Source: a virus | Reading direction: 5' to 3' (one strand) | Length of the DNA stretch: 37,101 bases | IMG/VR virus record: IMGVR_UViG_3300021256_000038 | Shown here: positions 852-37,101 of the stretch, piece after piece | Layout of the letters: each line of letters starts with the position of its first letter | Numbering within the stretch: position 1 is the first letter of the stretch | Program-made: the position numbers and the translations under genes | Notes under the pieces: generated by a model | What the model was told of the DNA's origin: nothing | The model's input: only the letters and a program-made list of their open reading frames with translations | Database searches by the model: none

Positions 852-3053
852 CTATTTCTTTTTCTTCATGATTCTTGCCAAGCATGCCGCACTATCACAA
901 TTCGATACTAATACACCATTTGCATAATAACAGCCTGCCTTCTCAACTGTGAGATTGTACACGGGCATAATATCGTTGTTTGCATAATGATGAACAGAAT
1001 TTATGTTTTGCTGACTTTGCTGTAAATGTGTTTCCGCAACATGCACATTGCTTTTCACATGGAGTGAATTTAAGCCCAATTCTTCTACGTCTTGCCTTTT
1101 GTTGGCAATTAACGCAACAAAATCTTTGCGTTTTTGTTGCAAGAAATTCTTTACCGCAAAATTCACAAATCTTAGGTGTTTCGTGTTTGCTCGCTTTGAG
1201 AATTGATTCTGCTGAATGTTTTCTATGCCATTCTCTGCCTTCTTCTGATTTATGCCATTCTTTTGCTTTTTCTCCTGCTTGAAGTAATTGTTCTTTGTTA
1301 CGTTCTCGATAATCTTCATTTTGCATATTTCTTTTAGCGTGCATCGACAGATGTTCCCTAGCTGATATACACTCCAGATTGCTGATGTCGTTATTGTCGA
1401 CATCACCATCAATATGATGTATGTGATAGCCTTTAGGAATTTCTCCATTGTAATATTCCCACACTGCTCTATGAAGCTGTCTGGCATTTTTTCTTTCTGC
1501 GTTTTTGGTTGTGTACTTGAAATAATATCGGCTCTTTGGATTTCTGATATAGGTTTCTCCATTGAATACAATAGTCTTTTTTTCCATGATAGTAACCTCC
1601 TTAATCCTATTGTATCAATTCTATCCGCACTATTCAAGCTATCCGCTGTTTTAAAGCCTTGATTATAAGTAAAAAATTTATGGTCATGCGTTGCATTTAC
1701 GCCATAATAATTACCTACTTTCTTATATCCTGTTATTCCTGCAAACGTCACTTTCCTAATTCCTGCTGGTGTTATTACATATTCTCCTATCTTTATATCT
1801 TTTATGGGTTTATTGCCTGTCAATGTCGCAATCATAGTGTTACCGTCTAAACATGCATCATCATGTTCTGCATTTTCGGTGTAATCTTCTATCTGCTTGA
1901 TATATTCTTCATCAGTTCCCTCAACAAATACAACCTCTTTCCATATTGCCTTAAGACACGTTGTTATCTTTATATGCTTGTTCATATCTTCATGGTACGT
2001 GACAACTTTCATGCCATAGGTCTTTCTCATTGCTTTTGCGACTAGTCCTTTATCAGCATTCTTTTCATTGTACAGCTTTCCTACCAATAAATAATCATAC
2101 CACCTCTTAATATCACTATAACAATCTTCTACATGCTTTCGCCATATTTTTCCAAAAACATAATATTTTCCATCGTGCTTCTGCATGACTGTTAAAGCTG
2201 TATAATCTTCTCCATAAAAGGCACTGTCCACATGAGCCAATCCATTCATGACAGCTGATGTGTCTGCTCTCTCTTTCTTAGGTTCAAAGATAACATCACT
2301 GTCGGCTCTATGCTTTAATTCATAGTTCGCACTAAACAATGACAAATCCATATGGTCTTTCTTGTATTGGATTTCTTCATCAGTAAGTAGCCCTGTTGTA
2401 TAACAATCATACTTTTTTGGTTTAGGCATCTTTGTAAAGGCATCATCTTTATGCCAAGGCGTACCTGTATTGAAAATACGTCCTGTCTCAATCTTGATGT
2501 TCTGCAATTCATCATAGATACGCTTAGTATGTTCTCTTTCTTTCTTTGAATATCTATCAGAGATGTTAACAATATCATCTGTAAATATCCTGTCGTAATG
2601 CTTTCCTGTTATCGAGGTATTCATACCTTTAGCAGTTAATTGGCATGTACCTCGTGGTCCATTAGCCAAATTGGTAGATAATTCATAGGCACTCTCTTTT
2701 GTAAGGTAGAAATCACAGCCGTATAACATTCTAACAAGATAGATGGTAAATGGATTCTTAATCATCTTCTTTACCTGTGCGATGATTTCTTTCACATCAT
2801 CATCGGTCTTACGCATGAACATGGTAGTGTCGTTTGGATAAAGAATAATAATAAGCAAAAAGGCGATAGATACGCATGTAGTCTTATAAGAACCACGATG
2901 TGCCTGTAACGTATCATCACCTTTGCCATATACCATGTCTTGAATCCATTTGTTATGAAGTTTCTTCTTTAGTTTTGTGAAACCTAATTCATGTGCAAGT
3001 GCAACAGGATTATCACGCAACTGTTTTAAAATCTTCTTCTGAATGGCATTCAT
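852..3053 (-). CDS. terL: Terminase large subunit precursor (400-aa N-extein, 318-aa intein, 15-aa C-extein).
   Basis: 733-aa ORF. ATPase motifs are HRGSYKTT (Walker A-like), RIFTDD (Walker B) and NTGTPW. Nuclease aspartates are HVDSAF and EHDDA. The frame is interrupted by CLDGNTM...VLVSN and resumes as CDSAACLARIM. The spliced size of 415 aa is typical for TerL. Confidence 0.9.
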   Translation of the reverse strand: MNAIQKKILKQLRDNPVALAHELGFTKLKKKLHNKWIQDMVYGKGDDTLQAHRGSYKTTCVSIAFLLIIILYPNDTTMFMRKTDDDVKEIIAQVKKMIKNPFTIYLVRMLYGCDFYLTKESAYELSTNLANGPRGTCQLTAKGMNTSITGKHYDRIFTDDIVNISDRYSKKEREHTKRIYDELQNIKIETGRIFNTGTPWHKDDAFTKMPKPKKYDCYTTGLLTDEEIQYKKDHMDLSLFSANYELKHRADSDVIFEPKKERADTSAVMNGLAHVDSAFYGEDYTALTVMQKHDGKYYVFGKIWRKHVEDCYSDIKRWYDYLLVGKLYNEKNADKGLVAKAMRKTYGMKVVTYHEDMNKHIKITTCLKAIWKEVVFVEGTDEEYIKQIEDYTENAEHDDACLDGNTMIATLTGNKPIKDIKIGEYVITPAGIRKVTFAGITGYKKVGNYYGVNATHDHKFFTYNQGFKTADSLNSADRIDTIGLRRLLSWKKRLLYSMEKPISEIQRADIISSTQPKTQKEKMPDSFIEQCGNITMEKFLKAITYIILMVMSTITTSAIWSVYQLGNICRCTLKEICKMKIIENVTKNNYFKQEKKQKNGINQKKAENGIENIQQNQFSKRANTKHLRFVNFAVKNFLQQKRKDFVALIANKRQDVEELGLNSLHVKSNVHVAETHLQQSQQNINSVHHYANNDIMPVYNLTVEKAGCYYANGVLVSNCDSAACLARIMKKKK
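900..1853 (-). mobile_element. Intein (Hint domain) inserted in the C-terminal nuclease motif of TerL.
   Basis: Block A is C-LDGNTMIATLTG (Cys1 codon 1853-1851). Block B is NATHDHKF (TxxH). Blocks F/G are VYNLTVEKAGCYYANGVLVSN (Asn codon 902-900), followed by the +1 Cys. The exteins rejoin to EHDDA-CDSAA, resembling the conserved hDDxxD nuclease motif. Confidence 0.85.
943..1587 (-). CDS. Free-standing HNH homing endonuclease nested inside the intein in a different reading frame.
   Basis: 214 aa with the HNH core HIHHIDGDVDNNDISNLECISAREH plus C-terminal CxxC zinc-ribbon pairs (CEFCG, CVNC, CACCG). It has its own ATG at 1587 and GGAGG at 1600-1596 with an 8-nt spacer. There is an in-frame TGA 9 codons upstream of the ATG. 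Confidence 0.85.
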   Translation of the reverse strand: MEKKTIVFNGETYIRNPKSRYYFKYTTKNAERKNARQLHRAVWEYYNGEIPKGYHIHHIDGDVDNNDISNLECISAREHLSMHAKRNMQNEDYRERNKEQLLQAGEKAKEWHKSEEGREWHRKHSAESILKASKHETPKICEFCGKEFLATKTQRFCCVNCQQKARRRRIGLKFTPCEKQCACCGNTFTAKSAKHKFCSSLCKQRYYARVQSHS

Positions 3054-3464: not shown

Positions 3465-3938
3465 CTATTTTTTTAGTTTTTTCAATACATCAATGGTCTT
3501 TTCTTCTGCCATGATTACATCATCAAACTTTCGCATTAACTCGACAATTTGCAATTGTGTCATTATATCTTCGTGCAATTCAATTTCAAAGAAAGAGAAA
3601 TCTGCCATTTGTATATTGATTGTACTTTGATAATTTGCTAAAAATTTTGGAACCGACCTTTCCAATGCAATTTTAAAATATTCAGGAACAACTTCAATTT
3701 TCGGTAAAATCACTGCATTTTTAGTTTCTATATAATTGTCGGAAGTTAACATATTTATTTGTCCATGCGTTGCGGAGACTTTGATATAACACGTTCCTTT
3801 CTGATATATTTGATTACGCTTAGCTCTCTGTACGTCTGCAATTTCAGTTAATTTATATTCTTTAGTTGTCAAATTCAAACTCCAACACCTCTTGTTTCCA
3901 CTTTCTTTGAGCACCTGTAACTGATTGCTTATACTCAC
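3465..3938 (-). CDS. hsdS: Type I HsdS-like specificity half-subunit (one target-recognition domain plus a conserved helix). The start is uncertain.
   Basis: TRD-like EYKLTEIADVQRAK...AVILPKIEVVPEYFKIAL, followed by a conserved-region helix HEDIMTQLQIVELMRKFDDVIMAEEKTIDVLKKLKK. A GTG start at 3938 overlaps the MTase 3' end by 77 nt. Confidence 0.65.
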   Translation of the reverse strand: MSISNQLQVLKESGNKRCWSLNLTTKEYKLTEIADVQRAKRNQIYQKGTCYIKVSATHGQINMLTSDNYIETKNAVILPKIEVVPEYFKIALERSVPKFLANYQSTINIQMADFSFFEIELHEDIMTQLQIVELMRKFDDVIMAEEKTIDVLKKLKK

Positions 3939-5133
3939 GCACTCCCTTTTTTAGTTTTGAGTCTGATTCAAATGTGGTTCCATGCATTTCTCTAATCATA
4001 TCCAACAATGCTTTTTTTGTCTTAAAACATTCATCTTCTAACATTGCCAGCTCCTGCATAGTTTCAACAAAATCAGGTATCGGCTCTGGAATGTAAGTAT
4101 CTACATATCTTGGAATATTTAAATTGCTTTCGTTTTTTTCAATTTCTTCAAACGTTGCAACATGGGTGAATCGCTTTATATCGGTACGAGATTTATAAGC
4201 ATTAATTATACGTGTTAAATTTTTATCCCGAATTATATTTTTTTGTTTAACCTTTTCGGCTTCATCTTTTGCGTCAATAAAATATACGTCCGAATCAGTT
4301 CGCCCTTTTTCAATTTCAATGACACAAGTAGGTATGTCGGTATTAATAAAAAGTTTATTAGGTAATCCAATTATCGTGCGAATCAAATTTTTTTGCAACA
4401 TCAATTGTCTGAACTTTTTTTCTTTATTGCTTCTAAACAACACGCCGTGTGGCAAAATGAACGCACATTTTCCTTTGTCTTTTAAAATTGATAGTGCAAA
4501 TGCAACAAACACAAAGTCCGCAAAGTTTGTCGGTAGCATATCAGCAAACTGTGGGAATCTGTTATCATTCTTCGGATTATATTTCATTGAATATGGTGGA
4601 TTGCTGATAACAGCGTCCACCTTAATTTGTGGAATTTCAATAACCTGTCTCACATTTGAAAAGTGTTCACTAGGTGTAACTTCATATGTTTCAAATGTTT
4701 CACCTGTCAGCAAATCAGCACGATAAACAATAGCATTTATGTTTCTGATTGACAAATTGAATAGTAACAAAGGTATCGCACGACTGCTCAATTCGTAGCA
4801 TATGAATTTTGATGATTTATTATGATTCCAAACACCAATTGTTAAACCACCTGTGCCAGCACACACATCGGCTATTACACCAGCTTTTTCTATAATTTGT
4901 GATAATAAACCACAAACTTCTGGTGGTGTAAAACACTGTGCCATTTTGCTTTTATTGGCATGTTCTTCTTCAAAATATTCTGTAAACCAATCATGATTTA
5001 GAGATTCGCCTAACTGCATGAATTGGTTGTAAATTGGTGTCATATCTTCGTTGAGTATTTTATGCAACAAGACACCAGGCAATTGAAAACTTTCTTGAAT
5101 CCCAAATATATGATTTATGTCTGCTGATTTCAT
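3862..5133 (-). CDS. hsdM: N6-adenine DNA methyltransferase, type I HsdM-like (gamma class), short form.
   Basis: 423 aa. The SAM motif is DVCAGTGGL, the catalytic motif is NPPYSMKY, and the HsdM-like C-terminal motif is NLNIPRYVD. Confidence 0.85.
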   Translation of the reverse strand: MKSADINHIFGIQESFQLPGVLLHKILNEDMTPIYNQFMQLGESLNHDWFTEYFEEEHANKSKMAQCFTPPEVCGLLSQIIEKAGVIADVCAGTGGLTIGVWNHNKSSKFICYELSSRAIPLLLFNLSIRNINAIVYRADLLTGETFETYEVTPSEHFSNVRQVIEIPQIKVDAVISNPPYSMKYNPKNDNRFPQFADMLPTNFADFVFVAFALSILKDKGKCAFILPHGVLFRSNKEKKFRQLMLQKNLIRTIIGLPNKLFINTDIPTCVIEIEKGRTDSDVYFIDAKDEAEKVKQKNIIRDKNLTRIINAYKSRTDIKRFTHVATFEEIEKNESNLNIPRYVDTYIPEPIPDFVETMQELAMLEDECFKTKKALLDMIREMHGTTFESDSKLKKGVREYKQSVTGAQRKWKQEVLEFEFDN

Positions 5134-5934
5134 TTACCATTTTCCTCCATAGTGTACTTTAGTTAAATTACACGCTTTAGCATTATTTCTGTATTCCTTT
5201 AATGACTGCGTTCCAAGTTCAATTCGACCCATAAGGAACACAACTTTGTCCGCATCCTTTGACGTGGCAATCAACTCCAGCATAGATTTCTTAATATTTT
5301 TCAGCTTTTCCAGCTTACGCTGATGAAGGGTGATAAGGTTGTCGATTCTCTCAAAATACTCGCCCAGCTTAATTTGTTCTTCCATTGATGGATAGGAAAC
5401 TGTAGTACCACCAACAAGCTCTTTGTTGAGGTTATTAACGGTACTTCCTGCTGCCATAGCTTTGTATTGTGAAAGCATATTATCTGTGCCGAGAAGTATG
5501 CATAAAAACTTCAAATCGAAGTTCTTATGAGTATCACGAATAGCAAGCCAACCATCGTGAATGCACCCATTTATCGCCATTATATAAGGTCTACCAAAGC
5601 TCATTGAATTGGATAAAATCAAATCACCCGGGTGTACTTCTCTTGTTTTTGAAAGACCCTCAGGTCTAATTTTTTCTGCTGTCTGCGTTATATAGTTTCC
5701 CTGCTCCGGAGCATCACCAATCTTAACCCAATTTAACCCATTTTCATCTTTAGTAATAAATTTATCTATTGGTCTTGGAGAACCTCCACGCTCTATTGTG
5801 ACAAGTTCAGAAAACTTACGCTGTTCCCAATCGTCAGTAAATCCTTCAAATCTAATTTCAGGAACTTTTGCTCCCTCACGAGGAAACATTTTTTCGAGCA
5901 TGGATAAATTTAAATCTTTGTCTTTATGATACAT
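5134..5934 (-). CDS. hsdS: Type I HsdS-like specificity half-subunit (TRD1, central conserved region and a truncated tail).
   Basis: 266 aa. The TRD reads WEQRKFSELVTIERGGSPRP...GDLILSNSMSFGRPYI...IHDGWL. The conserved region reads SMEEQIKLGEYFERIDNLITLHQRKLEKLKNIKKSML. The stop directly abuts the MTase ATG. Confidence 0.8.
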   Translation of the reverse strand: MYHKDKDLNLSMLEKMFPREGAKVPEIRFEGFTDDWEQRKFSELVTIERGGSPRPIDKFITKDENGLNWVKIGDAPEQGNYITQTAEKIRPEGLSKTREVHPGDLILSNSMSFGRPYIMAINGCIHDGWLAIRDTHKNFDLKFLCILLGTDNMLSQYKAMAAGSTVNNLNKELVGGTTVSYPSMEEQIKLGEYFERIDNLITLHQRKLEKLKNIKKSMLELIATSKDADKVVFLMGRIELGTQSLKEYRNNAKACNLTKVHYGGKW

Positions 5935-6543: not shown

Positions 6544-6573
6544 TCGTTAATTTTTCTATATTAATTATATCAT

Positions 6574-6619
6574 AAATTGCACTAAAATTGCACATTTATT
6601 TCATTCTGTTAAATTTGCA
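6574..6619. promoter_or_regulatory. Three AAATTGCA-type boxes (6574-6582, 6585-6593, 6611-6619) in the divergent control region. Putative operator sites.
   Basis: aaattgcac occurs twice, 11 bp apart, and aaatttgca once. Boxes 2 and 3 coincide with the -35 and -10 of the putative plus-strand promoter. Confidence 0.4.
6588..6615 (+). promoter_or_regulatory. Putative promoter of the plus-strand cassette (TTGCAC, 16-nt spacer, TGtTAAATT extended -10).
   Basis: The -35 ttgcac is at 6588-6593. The extended -10 tgt+taaatt is at 6607-6615. It lies about 25 nt upstream of the GGAGGTG RBS of the first cassette gene. Confidence 0.45.
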
Positions 6620-6652
6620 AAGAATATATAATTATAGTCGGAGGTGATAATA

Positions 6653-6994
6653 ATGTGGAATAACAATTACTTCAATCCATATCAAAATTATATGACACCA
6701 CAGACCAATACGCAAAAGCTAGAAATTGTTAGGGTCAACGGAAGAAATGGAGCAGAGACATTTCAGATGCCACCAAACAGTTCTACGTTGCTTTTAGATG
6801 AAAGCAATCCTGTTGTATGGCTATGTACAACAGATGGTGCTGGGTATAAGACTATTACACCTTATAATGTAACACCCTATAAAGACCCTAAAGAAATCAA
6901 TTTTTCATCATTGGAAGAAAGAATAAAGAAATTGGAGGAAATAGTAAATGATAAATCCCATTCTAAAGACGTTGTCAATGACACAGGGGCATAA
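6653..6994 (+). CDS. Hypothetical protein, cassette gene A (N/Q/Y-rich N-terminus).
   Basis: ATG at 6653, six nt after GGAGGTG. The track starts at GTG 6644. The 113-aa product begins MWNNNYFNPYQNYMTPQ. I recognise no family. Confidence 0.7.
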   Translation: MWNNNYFNPYQNYMTPQTNTQKLEIVRVNGRNGAETFQMPPNSSTLLLDESNPVVWLCTTDGAGYKTITPYNVTPYKDPKEINFSSLEERIKKLEEIVNDKSHSKDVVNDTGA

Positions 6995-7205
6995 TAATTT
7001 GAATCAGATTAAAAGCATGGTAAACATGTTAAAATCTGCAAATGATCCACAAGCAATGTTAAATAACCTAATGAACCAGAACCCACAATTTAAAGGGGTT
7101 ATGGACTATATCAACCAGAATGGTGGGGACCCAAAAAAGGCATTTTATGACCTTGCTGAAAAGAACGGAATTGACCCACAGGAGATATTAAACATGCTTA
7201 AATAA
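6948..7205 (+). CDS. Hypothetical small N/Q-rich helical protein, cassette gene B.
   Basis: 85 aa with RBS GGAGGAA 7 nt upstream of the ATG. It overlaps gene A by 47 nt. I recognise no family. Confidence 0.6.
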   Translation: MINPILKTLSMTQGHNNLNQIKSMVNMLKSANDPQAMLNNLMNQNPQFKGVMDYINQNGGDPKKAFYDLAEKNGIDPQEILNMLK

Positions 7206-7241
7206 TCGATTATTTATATAGATGAAAGGAGAAGATTAATT

Positions 7242-7889
7242 ATGGATAACGGTTCAATTACACCTGTATTGCCTGTTGGAACAGGTACAGACGGCTTTGG
7301 TGGAGGTAACGCATTTATCTGGATTTTCGGATTGCTTATTTTAATGTCTATGTTCAATGGTGGTTTTGGAAATAACGGTGGCTATCACCCACAATATGCT
7401 ACACAGCAGGACGTACAGTACACTTCACAGTTTGCACAGCTATTAGATGGAAATAGAGACATTGTAAACAACATTACAAACGGTACTGCACAGGCAGTAG
7501 CTACAACTAATCAGGCCAAGTATGACACAATCAACGTGGCTAAAGACATTCAATCTAATTTAATGGCTAATCAGTCCGAAATTAAGGTAGGACAGGCTAA
7601 TGCTTTAGCTAAAATGAATGAATGTTGCTGTAACACATTAAGAGCGATTGATAATGTAAATTATACTAATGCCATGAATACAGCTTCAATTAACGAAAAT
7701 ACTACTGCACAGACACAGAAAATTCTTGATGCTATCACATCAAACAGAATGGCTGATATGCAGAACCAGATTAATGCTTTACAATTACAGTCTGCAACTA
7801 GCAATGTATTGAGATTCCCTAATGCGTGGACATTCAACGGTGGTTATTTCCCTCCATTAACTCCACCTACAACAACTACTAACGGATAG
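7242..7889 (+). CDS. Hypothetical membrane-anchored protein, cassette gene C.
   Basis: 215 aa with RBS AAAGGAGAAG. It has a Gly-rich TM segment GGGNAFIWIFGLLILMSMFNGGFGNNGG, a long N/Q/T/A-rich region, a CCC triplet and a Pro/Thr tail PPLTPPTTTTNG. Confidence 0.7.
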   Translation: MDNGSITPVLPVGTGTDGFGGGNAFIWIFGLLILMSMFNGGFGNNGGYHPQYATQQDVQYTSQFAQLLDGNRDIVNNITNGTAQAVATTNQAKYDTINVAKDIQSNLMANQSEIKVGQANALAKMNECCCNTLRAIDNVNYTNAMNTASINENTTAQTQKILDAITSNRMADMQNQINALQLQSATSNVLRFPNAWTFNGGYFPPLTPPTTTTNG

Positions 7890-7895
7890 GAGGAC

Positions 7896-7924
7896 ATAGA
7901 GGTGGCTAATGCCATCTCTATTTT
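7896..7924 (+). terminator. Hairpin plus short T-run between cassette genes C and D. Putative internal terminator or attenuator.
   Basis: atagaggtggc-taat-gccatctctat forms an 11-bp stem with one G-U pair and is followed by tttt. It starts 7 nt after the gene C stop codon. Confidence 0.45.
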
Positions 7925-7929
7925 AGATT

Positions 7930-8157
7930 ATGAATAACAATCTTGATTTTCTGGATATTCTATCAATAATATCTTTTGCCATATCGATTGCCAATTACAA
8001 TCAGAATTTACAACAATCTAGCAATGATGATTTAATGAAAGAGATTGACCAAAAGACAACAGAACTACTTTCAAAACTTGAAAGCGATATTTCACGCCAA
8101 AATGCCGATATAAGCGAAATTAGGCATATGCTTACCAATCTACAAGAAAGGAGATAA
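7930..8157 (+). CDS. Hypothetical protein, cassette gene D (N-terminal hydrophobic helix plus coiled coil).
   Basis: 75 aa with FLDILSIISFAISIA followed by heptad-like sequence. No obvious SD is present. The stop lies 3 nt before gene E. Confidence 0.5.
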   Translation: MNNNLDFLDILSIISFAISIANYNQNLQQSSNDDLMKEIDQKTTELLSKLESDISRQNADISEIRHMLTNLQERR

Positions 8158-8160
8158 ACA

Positions 8161-8715
8161 ATGGACACACAGGAAATTTTTAAGCAAATAAGTGAAAGAT
8201 TAATAGAGGGAATGATGATACACGACTCGATGGCATCATATTATGATTTTCTTGGTTTAAAGGGATATAAAAGGGTGCATGAATATCATTTCTTGAAAGA
8301 ATCTATTGCATATAGAAAAGTTAACAGATATTACATCAATATCTATTCAATGCTTATTCCAAAAGATATGCCGAAAGACCCCAATATTATTCCTGCTTCG
8401 TGGAAAGGTGTCAAAAGAGAAAATGTTGATATATCAACAAAAAGAAATGCTGTGAAAACAGCAATCGAGAAATATGTTGCATGGGAATCAGAAACCAAAA
8501 ACCTGTATAGCCAGCTATACAAGGAACTAGAAAACAATCAAGAAATAGATGCGTGTATTAGATTGGAAAAGCTGATAAAAGAAGTGACTATGGAATTAAA
8601 GACAGCATCAAGAAAGCATATAGAACTTAAATCAATAGATTATGATATTATATACATATCACAGGAACAGCAGAGAATCCATGACTGCTACAAAAGTAAG
8701 ATGGAACGCCTATGA
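8161..8715 (+). CDS. Hypothetical all-helical protein, cassette gene E. A ferritin/Dps-like four-helix bundle is only a guess.
   Basis: 184 aa with RBS AAAGGAGA. The segment SMASYYDFLGLKGYKRVHEYHFLKESIAYRKV resembles ferritin-like helices by eye only. Confidence 0.6.
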   Translation: MDTQEIFKQISERLIEGMMIHDSMASYYDFLGLKGYKRVHEYHFLKESIAYRKVNRYYINIYSMLIPKDMPKDPNIIPASWKGVKRENVDISTKRNAVKTAIEKYVAWESETKNLYSQLYKELENNQEIDACIRLEKLIKEVTMELKTASRKHIELKSIDYDIIYISQEQQRIHDCYKSKMERL

Positions 8716-9002
8716 CAAATCTTGAGATTATCAACGATGAAATCGCAAAGCTAGAGAATCAACAAATAAATTATAATATCCTGCAGAATCTAGCCAATTT
8801 GTACACTGTTAGAGACAACTTGACAAATTCAGAGCCTGTTAAGCTTTCTGATACAAACAGCGAATTTCTAAATGCAGTAAACGGTGTAAATTACAACGCT
8901 CTTTTATCACTTCTTGATGAACACATGGAAATAATCAAAATGCTTTTTCCAACTGAATACAACGCTGTGATAACTAAAATATCGGAAATGAAAAAGGGGT
9001 AA
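8712..9002 (+). CDS. Hypothetical protein, cassette gene F.
   Basis: 96 aa. An ATGA start/stop overlap couples it to gene E. Confidence 0.6.
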   Translation: MTNLEIINDEIAKLENQQINYNILQNLANLYTVRDNLTNSEPVKLSDTNSEFLNAVNGVNYNALLSLLDEHMEIIKMLFPTEYNAVITKISEMKKG

Positions 9003-9020
9003 CTTTGTGTTACTCCTTTT
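8991..9020. terminator. Terminator hairpin at the convergence point of the plus cassette and the minus-strand genes.
   Basis: The sequence is aaaaa-ggggtaac-tttgt-gttactcc-tttt. The 8-bp stem is perfect with one G-U in plus-strand RNA and has one A-C mismatch in minus-strand RNA. It spans both convergent stop codons (9000-9002 and 9010-9012). Confidence 0.6.
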
Positions 9021-9204
9021 CAAATAATCTGTCCCAATACAATGCTATAAATGGAATCATCATAAAGACTCCAATAACAAACTGTACAACAATGCCTGTA
9101 ATTGTGTCTTGATTATCTCCAACACATAATAGCATGCCTGTAATTCCAATTATAACAATAATGGCTCTTAATACTCTTTTCAACATTTTCATCATTCCCA
9201 CCAA
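9010..9204 (-). CDS. Small membrane protein (two predicted TM helices).
   Basis: 64 aa with hydrophobic segments AIIVIIGITGMLLCVG and VVQFVIGVFMMIPFIALYW. Confidence 0.55.
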   Translation of the reverse strand: MVGMMKMLKRVLRAIIVIIGITGMLLCVGDNQDTITGIVVQFVIGVFMMIPFIALYWDRLFEKE

Positions 9205-14285: not shown

Positions 14286-15170
14286 TTATTCCTCACTTTC
14301 TAATAGGTTATCTATGTTGCAATTATCATTTGGTATATTTTTTAAAATGTGCGCTATCACATCAACAGTCCAGCCATTTCCAATTCCTTTATACTTTGCT
14401 CCCTTTGTCACAGGTGCATTATCACAATATCCATCTGGAAGAGTCTGCAGTTTTTCCCAATCTCTTATAGTCAAATTGCAATATTGCGTATGATCTTCAT
14501 TCAAATAATACGCCATTGGATGTGTGCCATTTGTTGTAAGAGTATGGCTTTTTTTAGAGTTCACATCATGAAGCATATCGATTTTTCTTTTGTCTCCCCA
14601 TTTTTTATACGCCCAATTACCCACAGGTCTAAATGATTCATTATTAAAATCAACAACATCATAAAGCATAATATTTTTATCTTGTGGTAGACTTACATTT
14701 GGTATGTTGGTCCAATACAATCTTTTTCTATTTTGTGCACTAACAAGTGAACTGTTTATATAAATAGGTTCAACGCCAAGTTCTTTAGTTATTGCATTTT
14801 TTATTTCTTGGCTCATAGAATAATTATTTTCATAAAGAAAATATTTTGGTTTACATTCTTTTAACGCTCTCACATACTGGCTGAACAATTCCCACCCCAA
14901 TCCACTTGATGTTGTTTCTCTATTTTTAGGATTTTGGGCAATACTCCAATAAGTGCAAGGACTCCCACCAATTAACAAATCATATTCTCCTTTTCTATAC
15001 TTTGCATCAAATACATCACCTTTATGATTTATGTTTTGATAGTTATGCTTGCTGATTTTTATTGCATTTTCATCAATTTCATAAGAATCATACTTTTCAA
15101 CAGAAAACCCAGCTCTTTCAAGAGCAATCATTCCACAACTTATACCATCAAATAAACTTAATACTTTCAT
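14286..15170 (-). CDS. DNA (cytosine-5)-methyltransferase, orphan.
   Basis: Motif I is LSLFDGISCG, motif IV is GGSPCTYWS, motif VI is ENN, motif VIII is QNRKRLYW and motif X is GNGWTVDV. I prefer ATG 15170 (GGAGG 6 nt upstream) over the track start at 15218. Confidence 0.9.
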   Translation of the reverse strand: MKVLSLFDGISCGMIALERAGFSVEKYDSYEIDENAIKISKHNYQNINHKGDVFDAKYRKGEYDLLIGGSPCTYWSIAQNPKNRETTSSGLGWELFSQYVRALKECKPKYFLYENNYSMSQEIKNAITKELGVEPIYINSSLVSAQNRKRLYWTNIPNVSLPQDKNIMLYDVVDFNNESFRPVGNWAYKKWGDKRKIDMLHDVNSKKSHTLTTNGTHPMAYYLNEDHTQYCNLTIRDWEKLQTLPDGYCDNAPVTKGAKYKGIGNGWTVDVIAHILKNIPNDNCNIDNLLESEE

Positions 15171-15171
15171 T

Positions 15172-15411
15172 TTAATCCTCCTTGTTATCAATCTCTTTTT
15201 TGTTAAATTTATCAACATCTCTATTTATCTTTTTAGCAATTCGATTGATTTTTAATTTCAACAACATAATTTTTAATTTCAACAACATAATCTGTACTAT
15301 ATCAATGAATGAGCAAATCAAACACGCAACAATGATTAACAAAATCACTAACAAACCAACTGCCAATAAAACACCGATAACCGTTCCTAACCCATTTAAT
15401 ACTGTGTTCAT
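15172..15411 (-). CDS. Small membrane protein containing an in-frame 7-aa duplication.
   Basis: 79 aa with TM segment VIGVLLAVGLLVILLIIVACLICSFI and the duplicated IMLLKLK. Confidence 0.55.
   Translation of the reverse strand: MNTVLNGLGTVIGVLLAVGLLVILLIIVACLICSFIDIVQIMLLKLKIMLLKLKINRIAKKINRDVDKFNKKEIDNKED
15250..15291. repeat. Perfect 21-bp tandem duplication (ttttaatttcaacaacataat, two copies).
   Basis: Read directly from the sequence. It is in frame within the 79-aa ORF. Confidence 0.9.
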
Positions 15412-21225: not shown

Positions 21226-21254
21226 ATATTATCATATATAAATACACACTTCAA
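21226..21254 (-). promoter_or_regulatory. Early promoter (TTGAAG, 17-nt spacer, TGaTAATAT).
   Basis: The minus strand reads ttgaagtgtgtatttatatatgataatat. It overlaps the 3' end of the sigma-like gene. Confidence 0.55.
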
Positions 21255-21478
21255 CACCTAATTATAATCTTTTTAACTAATTCTTCCTTATTTGTATAGA
21301 TGATGTTTTTAATCTGTCTAACGCTCATATCAAACTGATAAGCCAACTGCTCGTAGGTCAATCCATCAATATATCTTCTCTTTAATATGTCCCTATTTCT
21401 TTTATTATGGATATATTCATTTACTGCATTGGTTATAACGCTATTAGGAAATTCCCTCAAATCAATATTTTTTTCCAT
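21251..21478 (-). CDS. Sigma-70 region-4-like HTH transcriptional regulator. It is the first early gene.
   Basis: 75 aa counted from ATG 21478 (GGAGGTAGTCACAAA upstream). ILKRRYIDGLTYEQLAYQFDMSVRQIKNII is a typical region-4 HTH. Confidence 0.65.
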   Translation of the reverse strand: MEKNIDLREFPNSVITNAVNEYIHNKRNRDILKRRYIDGLTYEQLAYQFDMSVRQIKNIIYTNKEELVKKIIIRC

Positions 21479-21510
21479 TTTGTGACTACCTCCTATTTCA
21501 ATTTTATACC

Positions 21511-21545
21511 AAAAAGAAAAACGCACCAACGAATTGGCACGCTTT
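21511..21545 (-). terminator. Intrinsic terminator or attenuator in the early leader, with a UUCG tetraloop.
   Basis: Minus-strand RNA reads GCGUGCCAA-UUCG-UUGGUGCGU followed by UUUUCUUUUU. The three G-U pairs form only in the minus-strand transcript. Confidence 0.6.
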
Positions 21546-36445: not shown

Positions 36446-37101
36446 TCACTCCTTAACAGGTTCTTCTGGCTCATTTGTTTCTGGTTCCTTTGGTGTAACA
36501 AATCTGTCAGACTCGTCTCTTGTCAATGCATCTAAAATAGTCTCGATTTCATCATTAGATAAGAACGGTAAATGAGTCAAGATTGTTTTGGTATCAAGAT
36601 ACTGTGCACACGATAGAACCATCTGAGTTTCTTCCTGCTGGTTAACAATTCTAGAACGTGTAAATTTAGGTGTATCTTCTACACTGATTAAATGCAGAAT
36701 CTGTTTAATGAACGTGCTTACGCAATATTCAAATGAATCAGTTTTATTGTCCAGTGGTCCATATGAAGCCTTGATTGCAGTTGCAGTAACATTGGAAGAA
36801 ATCTGCGACATATTCAAGGCCATAAAATCATTATACAAATCATTCTCCAATCTATCCAAATATGCAACTCTTGATTGATAAGGTACGTCCATTGTATGTG
36901 CTTCTGCCTGTTCATCATCATCAAAAGCATATGCCTTGACGGTTTTCATACGCTGTACAAACTGAGCCAAGTCTACATCGTCCATGCCACCTGCATTCTT
37001 GATTGTCCAATAAATCATTGATGCATCGTCCAAATCATTAGCGAAACCAGAACGAATCAAATCGTAAGCGTCTATTTCATCACGTCTGCCATGTAGTTCA
37101 C
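36446..37101 (-). CDS. Portal protein, C-terminal part. It is continuous with 1-842 through the circular junction, and 36975-37101 duplicates 1-127.
   Basis: The track ORF 36446..37060 starts at an internal TTG. Upstream the frame stays open to the window edge and reads ...YDLIRSGFANDLDD, identical to the left-edge translation. Confidence 0.85.
   Translation of the reverse strand, partial: ELHGRRDEIDAYDLIRSGFANDLDDASMIYWTIKNAGGMDDVDLAQFVQRMKTVKAYAFDDDEQAEAHTMDVPYQSRVAYLDRLENDLYNDFMALNMSQISSNVTATAIKASYGPLDNKTDSFEYCVSTFIKQILHLISVEDTPKFTRSRIVNQQEETQMVLSCAQYLDTKTILTHLPFLSNDEIETILDALTRDESDRFVTPKEPETNEPEEPVKE
36975..37101. repeat. Right copy of the 127-bp terminal duplication.
   Basis: Identical to bases 1-127. 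Confidence 0.9.

Follow-up and report, generated by a model that had tools for sequence, protein, structure and literature searches.

A conserved, self-contained gene module with an A-B-C core in phages of gut and rumen

Morons and lysogenic-conversion cassettes are among the described phage systems that stand closest to the locus considered here; their usual position in phages of Firmicutes is between the lysis genes and the integrase or attachment site. A second point of comparison is provided by membrane-anchored superinfection-exclusion proteins, such as those of the lactococcal Sie2009 type, SieA of P22 and Imm of T4. A third is p16.7 of phi29, an early replication protein with a DNA-binding domain, in which an N-terminal transmembrane helix and a coiled coil tether phage processes to the membrane. 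The locus examined against this background is a cassette of six genes, A to F (6653-9002, plus strand), in the virus record IMGVR_UViG_3300021256_000038. The whole stretch of DNA analyzed, 37,101 nucleotides long, is referred to below as the window.

The cassette belongs to a real, conserved and self-contained module in which the A-B-C core is constant, an attenuator lies within the unit and the distal genes, here D, E and F, vary. That it is neither virion machinery nor replication machinery is the best explanation of the evidence described below. The reading favored here, to which a probability of roughly 40% is assigned, is that the module is an autonomous, horizontally mobile accessory unit that builds a membrane-anchored coiled-coil complex, altering the host membrane or envelope for the benefit of the phage.

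The cassette and the loci that share it

The window carries an exact 127-bp terminal repeat (1-127 and 36975-37101) and is therefore a complete circular assembly, comprising 36,974 unique bp, of a siphovirus-type phage. Genes A to F are the sole credible plus-strand genes of this genome. All other annotatable genes lie on the minus strand, and the sign switch of both GC skew and AT skew is confined to 7-9 kb, over the cassette. The inverted block lies where the early and late regions meet, some 3.5 kb from TerL. Gene A (6653-6994) encodes 113 aa and overlaps by 47 nt with B (6948-7205; 85 aa); C (7242-7889; 215 aa), D (7930-8157; 75 aa) and E (8161-8715; 184 aa) follow, and the start of F (8712-9002; 96 aa) overlaps the stop of E in the sequence ATGA. 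Shine-Dalgarno sites precede most of the cassette genes, that of A reading GGAGGTG at 6640-6646 (plus strand); the exceptions are F, which overlaps E, and D, which has no adjacent site. Proteins B, C, D, F and A are the most Asn/Gln-rich real proteins of the genome, with Asn plus Gln contents of 24.7, 21.4, 20.0, 18.8 and 15.9%, respectively, versus 9.8% for the minus-strand proteome. An earlier note on this DNA had described six plus-strand genes in a genome otherwise transcribed in one direction, with products of odd composition that could be placed in no family. The open reading frames (ORFs), the skew switch and the compositions all bear this out: nothing above threshold was found for A to D and F in Pfam, NCBIfam or PADLOC, E also stayed below these thresholds, and PHROGs offered only families of unknown function for A, C and E.

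Relatives of the cassette are numerous. In a collection of 5.8 billion proteins, C has more than 5,160 homologues. An exhaustive profile search gave 1,193 clusters at the 50% identity level, nearly all of them stand-alone proteins about 200 aa long, and detected no domain fusions. For A, 1,362 homologues were found, none with a function-bearing name. The loci examined were 136 that encode C homologues: IMG/VR viral contigs of approximately 30-184 kb, mostly from rumen and gut, contigs of metagenome-assembled genomes, mostly assigned to Clostridia, and one isolate genome, that of Ruminococcus flavefaciens FD-1. A rumen contig, IMGVR_UViG_3300021400_001517, matches the window and encodes a C protein that is 100% identical.

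Gene occurrence was determined by iterative hidden Markov model searches of all ORFs of the 136 loci, and the resulting counts are lower bounds, given the truncation of many loci and the recoding of stop codons in others. Next to C (136/136), the searches recovered B in 121 loci, always between A and C, and A in 116, always upstream of B and C. The three core genes are invariably adjacent, in this order and on the same strand, and D, E and F are always downstream. E occurs in 64 loci, F in 15, nearly always after E, and D in 22, always downstream of C or of X, a gene missing from the window that is described below. The earlier note had asked whether the six genes travel together; they form no fixed set, as only the A-B-C core is constant.

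Across unrelated phages, C proteins remain 54-67% identical. When the 65 ORFs of the window were compared with 134 other loci, each of the six cassette genes was seen to recur in 7-134 other loci, and the only non-cassette ORFs found in more than four others are the dUTPase (12) and a small regulator with a Sigma70_r4 domain (9). This recurrence of the cassette genes, shared by few other ORFs of the window, indicates that the module has been exchanged horizontally among otherwise unrelated phages. Its spread covers sipho-, myo- and podovirus-type phages as well as genomes of 100-180 kb, including TAG- and TGA-recoded ones. In GenBank phages, A or C was found in only three to six metagenomic records, all unannotated, and X in none; no example came from PLSDB plasmids, and literature searches found no description of the module. 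With its own terminator, its conserved upstream element and its presence in otherwise unrelated phages, the cassette is well described as the self-contained, moron-like accessory unit that the earlier note had proposed.

The genomic slots of the module vary. At non-recoded loci, endolysin and amidase families are the commonest annotated class of upstream neighbor, and integrases are commonest downstream, followed by repressors and replication proteins. In L137, the module lies between tail genes and a holin-endolysin pair; in L004, it lies ahead of the connector and terminase; and in several phages it follows an early-region regulator and precedes a helicase. In other phages, then, the module often occupies classic moron slots.

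Two of the loci have a history of their own. In R. flavefaciens FD-1 (L009, 5189-9459), a CI-like repressor, a Cro-like gene and a few small genes are followed by C, E and F and then by host genes, an arrangement that looks like a remnant element. L137 is a defective prophage in which a deletion has left the N-terminal part of a tape measure protein continuous with the C-terminal half of a C protein (P0388, 6001-7164); a 139-aa unclassified gene, the holin and the endolysin lie 3' of it. As a single case produced by deletion in a defective prophage, this chimera was rejected as a genuine fusion.

Control elements and expression timing

The hairpin that the earlier note had placed after gene C is present: a stem-loop with a T-rich tail occupies 7896-7931 (plus strand), its hairpin (7896-7921) having an 11-bp stem, a dG of -18.7 kcal/mol and a z of -5.0, followed by the T-rich TTTTAGATTAT. 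By one crude criterion, applied alike to after-C, after-B, after-X and control gaps, a terminator-like hairpin follows C in 34 of 61 non-redundant, non-recoded loci (56%), compared with 79 of 374 control same-strand gaps of 30-200 nt (21%; odds ratio 4.7, p 1.3e-7). The corresponding figures are 6 of 51 gaps (12%) after B and 3 of 71 after X. The hairpin after C is a conserved family trait. It is read as a leaky terminator or attenuator that would keep A-B-C expression high and that of the distal genes low. It may also bear on the translation of D, whose sole Shine-Dalgarno-like site, GGAGGA at 7889-7894, is separated from the ATG (7930) by the 26-nt hairpin. Folding of the hairpin would place this site about 9 nt from the ATG, and initiation of D may need such folding.

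At the other end of the cassette, where it converges with the minus-strand genes, a second hairpin (8989-9022) folds on the plus strand with a dG of -15.7 and a z of -5.3, followed by a T-run. The earlier note had predicted a terminator at this point. Because the hairpin folds on the minus strand as well (dG -11.5, z -3.6), it is a bidirectional intrinsic terminator.

The promoter and operator region assigned to the cassette in the earlier note fared less evenly. A generic sigma-70 scan found no plus-strand site in 6544-6652 and stood at chance level over the region (23 sites versus 21.7 expected), and a generic sigma-70 promoter was rejected on that ground; the inverted repeats upstream of A (6544-6652) are short and AT-rich. 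What remains of the claim is a conserved, module-specific element at 6574-6606 (plus strand), which consists of tandem AAATTGCAC copies (6574-6582 and 6585-6593) followed by ATTTATTTCATT, the part after both copies reading ATTTATTTCATTC. The element occurs once in the window. The motif AA[AT]TTGCAC is enriched about 20-fold upstream of A homologues, and TGCAC-N3-6-TATTTCAT is found only upstream of A, at four loci (window/L057, L032, L067 and L068), with no occurrence elsewhere in approximately 1.46 Mb. The element is a candidate promoter or activator site of the cassette. More generally, 64 of 89 loci have a gap of more than 60 nt before A, and 15 have a divergent upstream neighbor; many of the regions upstream of A open with a GC hairpin and T-run, as judged by eye and uncounted.

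A possible trans-acting regulator is suggested by the small Sigma70_r4-type protein encoded at 21251-21529 (minus strand), which matches Pfam Sigma70_r4 at 26 bits (cut-off 24.1). Its gene lies 14 kb from the cassette in the window. In L032 (1949-2152), L067 (4003-4263), L068, L103 (135-365), L051 (293-541), L125 (6900-7109) and L014, a homologue directly precedes A on the same strand, and three of these loci also have the conserved upstream element.

Timing can be approached through relatives that reassign a stop codon. At least a dozen loci each come from TAG-recoded phages (examples are L001, L082, L095, L099 and L122) and from TGA-recoded phages (L076, L085, L043, L131 and L113). In L001, the module lies in a plus-strand block with a tail-fiber gene, at 1.8-4.4 in-frame TAG per 100 codons, and the opposite block, which encodes dUTPase, NrdG, NrdD and Pol III alpha, has about 0-0.7. 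Over the TAG-recoded loci, in-frame TAG per 100 codons amounts to 1.9 in A, 4.4 in B, 1.8 in E and 2.0 in F, 0.65 in X and 0.08 in C, with 1.08 in other genes; C uses only 2 TAG in 2,664 codons despite its Gln-rich sequence. Recoded stops have been tied to late structural and lysis genes (10.1101/2021.08.26.457843). The position of the module in the late recoded block of recoded lytic relatives speaks against expression in lysogens alone and against a purely early role in exclusion. By their codon usage, C and X could be made under the standard code, and their partners A, B, E and F would need the code switch. Such uneven use of recoded stops within one operon offers a natural handle on how a code switch stages protein production.

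Encoded proteins, gene X and the remaining genes of the window

The AlphaFold2 model of protein A has a pLDDT of 74.8, rising above 90 in the core (about residues 30-70), and consists of a disordered Asn/Gln/Tyr-rich N-terminus (1-21), a small beta-alpha-beta-beta-beta domain (26-72) and a long helix (85-108). Foldseek found no match for this model in the PDB (best E 0.44). In BFVD, its matches are essentially all uncharacterized phage proteins, from gut-virome phages labeled Siphoviridae, Myoviridae and Podoviridae; a few have automatically assigned names ("zipper", "Gal4-like"), which seem to be due to the C-terminal helix alone. Protein B is all-helical and rich in Gln, Met and Asn, with conserved NPQ, GGDP and G(I/V)DP motifs.

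Protein C begins with an acidic N-tail, followed by one strongly hydrophobic helix (about 24-42; Kyte-Doolittle 1.86), a Gly-rich linker, a predicted helical hairpin of two helices (55-136 and 141-187) and a Cys-free Pro/Thr tail. An invariant ECCC motif, its CCC at 128-130, stands at the end of the first long helix, beside the turn. In some C homologues (P0334 and P0302), QNRYEAALNTA-like repeats of about 16 aa, arranged in tandem, lengthen the protein downstream of the CCC motif, so that stalks of different lengths occur among the homologues. None of the six cassette proteins has a signal peptide by inspection. Searches with the A, B, C and F family profiles gave nothing credible among PDB sequences, and the B, C and F families had no Pfam match. 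The features singled out by the earlier note, namely the N-terminus of A, the small Asn/Gln-rich helical B, and the transmembrane (TM) segment, Asn/Gln-rich region, CCC triplet and Pro/Thr tail of C, were all recovered.

In about two thirds of the loci (89/136), C is directly followed by X, a gene for a protein of about 136 aa with a Cys cluster. The X family profile matches the C-terminal domain of BclA over its full length (E 1.4e-8) and also matches C1q-like cerebellin and Pfam BclA_C. X is missing from the window, where the gap between C and D is just 40 nt and holds the hairpin. The presence of X follows the C tail. Most C proteins end in PFCxxGCxC, and the window type has a Cys-free FPPL...T/A tail; X lies downstream of 0 of 10 Cys-free tails versus 86 of 109 Cys tails (p 9e-7). 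This co-variation argues that the C tail and X may interact through cysteines. Most loci that combine a Cys tail with the lack of X encode another Cys-rich small protein at the +1 position (clusters 23 and 40), and Cys-free-tail modules have a 102-aa protein (cluster 5), D or E next instead of X. The cassette of the window is a distinct variant, without X and without tail cysteines. The cluster 5 protein (L103, 1812-2120, and 25 other loci) is helical, has an EMEH (ExxH) motif and often follows C in X-less modules; it resembles a half-ferritin and has a sub-threshold Rubrerythrin match (E 0.039).

The distal proteins are less conserved in occurrence. Protein D was thought by the earlier note to combine a TM helix with a coiled coil; its C-terminus is indeed coiled-coil-like, but its N-terminal hydrophobic segment reaches a Kyte-Doolittle value of only 1.52 and is borderline as a TM helix. 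Its matches in Pfam, PHROGs and PADLOC were all sub-threshold. B and D were considered as WXG100/LXG substrates of type VII secretion and rejected, D scoring 16 bits against LXG (cut-off 26.5) and B matching neither family.

Protein E is helical, with E47, E109 and E145 invariant and H21 nearly so, and its family profile retrieves prokaryotic ferritins from the PDB at E of about 0.004-0.02 (best 0.004-0.005), collinear over both halves. Only one of 29 members matches Pfam Ferritin, at 0.042, which does not reach the Pfam threshold. The ferroxidase ligand set (Glu17, Glu50, His53, Glu94, Glu/Gln127-130) is incomplete, the positions aligned with Glu17 and His53 being unconserved. E is weakly ferritin-like at best, probably with a modified site; the earlier note had called it all-helical and only possibly ferritin-like. 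A Spore_III_AB assignment of E homologues was rejected as sub-threshold and limited to one subgroup. Protein F is helical and has a conserved N-terminal LAxLYxVRD motif.

The minus strand of the window encodes a recognizable phage repertoire. It comprises an intein-containing TerL, a type-I-like N6 methylase accompanied by two HsdS-like genes, dUTPase, a MazG-like NTP pyrophosphohydrolase, resolvase, single-stranded DNA-binding protein (SSB), a second methylase, DnaC-like, DnaD-like and replication-initiator proteins, Erf, the Sigma70_r4 regulator, a Phage_holin_4_1 holin, a CHAP-type endolysin, tail proteins, the tape measure protein and the major head protein. In TerL (852-3053, minus strand), the intein was recognized by Pfam Intein_splicing, and PHROG TerL families match both flanks. 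The orphan type-I-like N6 adenine methylase (3862-5133, minus strand) lies between the HsdS-like genes (3465-3938 and 5134-5934) and lacks a restriction subunit; this set (3465-5934) is probably an anti-restriction self-methylation system. The second DNA methyltransferase is encoded at 14286-15218 (minus strand).

Possible roles and comparison with known systems

The mechanism proposed for a membrane-anchored complex starts from unequal expression, the hairpin terminator making A, B and C abundant and D to F scarce. C would insert into the host cytoplasmic membrane by its single TM helix, with the acidic N-tail outward and the Asn/Gln/Thr/Ala-rich hairpin in the cytoplasm; the large domain is put there because the cassette proteins have no signal peptide. 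C might then oligomerize into a membrane-anchored coiled-coil scaffold on the cytoplasmic face, which A would join via its C-terminal helix. B may act as a Met/Gln-rich helical assembly partner or chaperone, and D as a second small membrane or coiled-coil subunit. E could supply a metal site of ferritin type, and F could serve as the adaptor of E. The Cys-rich C tail found in most relatives would pair with the Cys-rich, BclA/C1q-like knob X, and the lineage of the window would have lost both the tail cysteines and X. Candidate benefits to the phage are the exclusion of competing phages or the control of envelope integrity and timing.

Several observations weigh against this scheme. PADLOC-DB returned only noise matches (E at least 0.0066) and no known defense or exclusion family. 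The AlphaFold2 model of C is helical but of low confidence (pLDDT 52), and the topology of C is itself inferred, the flanks of its TM segment having no positive charges. For a protein in an arms race, C is unusually conserved. In recoded lytic phages, A, B, E and F resemble late genes in having recoded stops within their reading frames, which fits a late role better than early exclusion. Neither an integrase nor a repressor was detected anywhere in the complete genome, and without an integrase lysogenic conversion cannot be the role of the cassette here. The ferritin-like assignment of E is marginal (E about 0.004), with two canonical ferroxidase ligands absent. The homology to ordinary structural or replication proteins that the earlier note had named as fatal to an accessory role was, however, seen in none of the six proteins.

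A late lysis-associated accessory function is the alternative that survives best, but it is unlikely. C and D, with A and B as partners, would then adjust when, or how completely, the envelope breaks down, acting as a holin regulator or membrane disruptor beside the canonical holin and endolysin. The frequent endolysin and amidase neighbors upstream, the position in L137 between tail genes and holin-endolysin, and the late recoded block of recoded phages, in which A, B, E and F contain recoded stops as lysis genes do, are all consistent with such a function. The architecture of D, an N-terminal hydrophobic segment plus a coiled coil, is presumably like that of small holin-like proteins of the BhlA/UviB type. 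However, the window has a canonical Phage_holin_4_1 holin and CHAP endolysin at 21.7-23.1 kb, on the other strand and about 13 kb from the cassette, and C or D as the primary holin was rejected since the phage encodes its own. Neither C nor D matched a holin or spanin family in Pfam or PHROGs. The putative effector itself, C, is nearly free of recoded stops, opposite to what is reported of lysis effectors, and in several phages the module comes after an early-region regulator and ahead of a helicase.

Two structural alternatives are less probable still. In the first, the module would be a virion-associated accessory: a coiled-coil shaft formed by C and a C1q-like knob formed by X would make up a fiber, a virion decoration or a protein that is ejected, and A and B would serve as assembly factors. 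X is a trimeric knob of the BclA/C1q type, a fold typical of fiber tips, in large phages the module is co-oriented with the tail-fiber gene and other large late genes, and some C homologues differ in length by tandem repeats, as fibers do. Attenuators follow the genes of major structural subunits, and the terminator after C resembles them. Yet the module occurs in sipho-, myo- and podovirus-type genomes and in genomes of 30-184 kb, which is unlikely for a fitted virion part, and the cassette of the window is inverted, distant from the tail genes and devoid of X. Moreover, C has a genuine hydrophobic helix of membrane type, and the sole fusion of C with a tape measure protein is a deletion product in a defective prophage. 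A virion role is improbable.

The second, equally improbable, is a self-assembling layer of spore-coat or exosporium type, Cys-cross-linked or metal-bridged, that alters the surface of the host cell or spore or builds an intracellular lattice. It draws on the homology of X to the C-terminal domain of the exosporium protein BclA, on the co-varying Cys clusters of C, X and the alternative +1 proteins, on recurrent ferritin- or rubrerythrin-like partners, on the lack of signal peptides, as in mother-cell coat proteins, and on putative hosts that are mostly Clostridia. The N-terminus of A, rich in Gln, Tyr and Pro, resembles that of some coat proteins. These points are opposed by the window variant, which has neither X nor tail cysteines, and by the fact that virulent and recoded phages also have the module. 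There is no evident promoter of sporulation type, and the Spore_III_AB matches of E are sub-threshold. R. flavefaciens, the sole isolate host, is not known to sporulate. A CotJ-like spore-coat operon was rejected, as there were no family matches. Finally, the view that the ORFs are chance or decaying remnants without function, for which only their lack of annotation speaks, is refuted by conservation, given thousands of homologues with invariant residues and strict synteny, and is further opposed by the Shine-Dalgarno sites before most genes, the confident fold of A and the strand-composition switch.

Whatever its exact role, a module conserved to this extent must matter to phages of anaerobic, Firmicutes-dominated ecosystems. 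Since A, B and C have no characterized relatives, A has no relative of solved fold and no paper describing the module was found, it is rated here as lying outside the known kinds of system, with the caveat that a known activity in very divergent form may yet turn out to underlie it. A bolder suggestion, offered tentatively and as less probable than the accessory membrane complex in its general form, is that A-B-C(-X) and the ferritin-like partners represent an unrecognized class of phage-built, membrane-anchored assembly that combines a coiled-coil stalk, a novel-fold adaptor and a Cys-linked C1q/BclA-like knob and has no characterized analogue. If true, such a class would have spread horizontally among gut and rumen phages in their thousands, across all tail types and three genetic codes. 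Once worked out, the role of the module would annotate thousands of "hypothetical" genes of gut and rumen viromes, and it could reveal a new phage route to manipulation of the host membrane.

Comparison with known systems places the module near several of them and clearly inside none. X resembles the C-terminal domain of BclA, the C1q/TNF-like exosporium knob (PDB 1WCK, 2Z5W), over its full length, but it has no collagen-like stalk or exosporium-targeting N-terminus and carries an extra Cys cluster. The E family is collinear with prokaryotic ferritins (Thermotoga maritima 1VLG and 1Z4A) over helices A-B and C-E, and E47, E109 and E145 fall on ferroxidase Glu positions; unlike ferritins, it has H21 in place of a conserved Tyr and does not conserve the Glu17 and His53 positions, and its score is marginal. 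With phi29 p16.7, C and D share a predicted architecture, an N-terminal membrane anchor followed by a cytoplasm-facing coiled coil; they differ in showing no sequence similarity to it and no detectable DNA-binding domain.

The likeness to proteins of the Sie2009 type, SieA and Imm is one of kind, that of a small phage membrane protein that is accessory and dispensable for virion and replication functions. Superinfection-exclusion systems, however, are usually single, fast-evolving genes, whereas the module has conserved soluble partners and internal control of stoichiometry, and the cassette proteins showed no sequence or profile similarity to them in Pfam, PHROGs or PADLOC. Phage morons and lysogenic-conversion cassettes share more of its organization: like them, the module is a discrete unit, closed by a terminator of its own and preceded by a putative control region, sits at a junction between genome modules, and is present or absent among related phages and common to unrelated ones. 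In contrast to morons, it is much larger (4-7 genes) and far more conserved, occurs in virulent, integrase-less and stop-recoded phages, and behaves as a late gene set.

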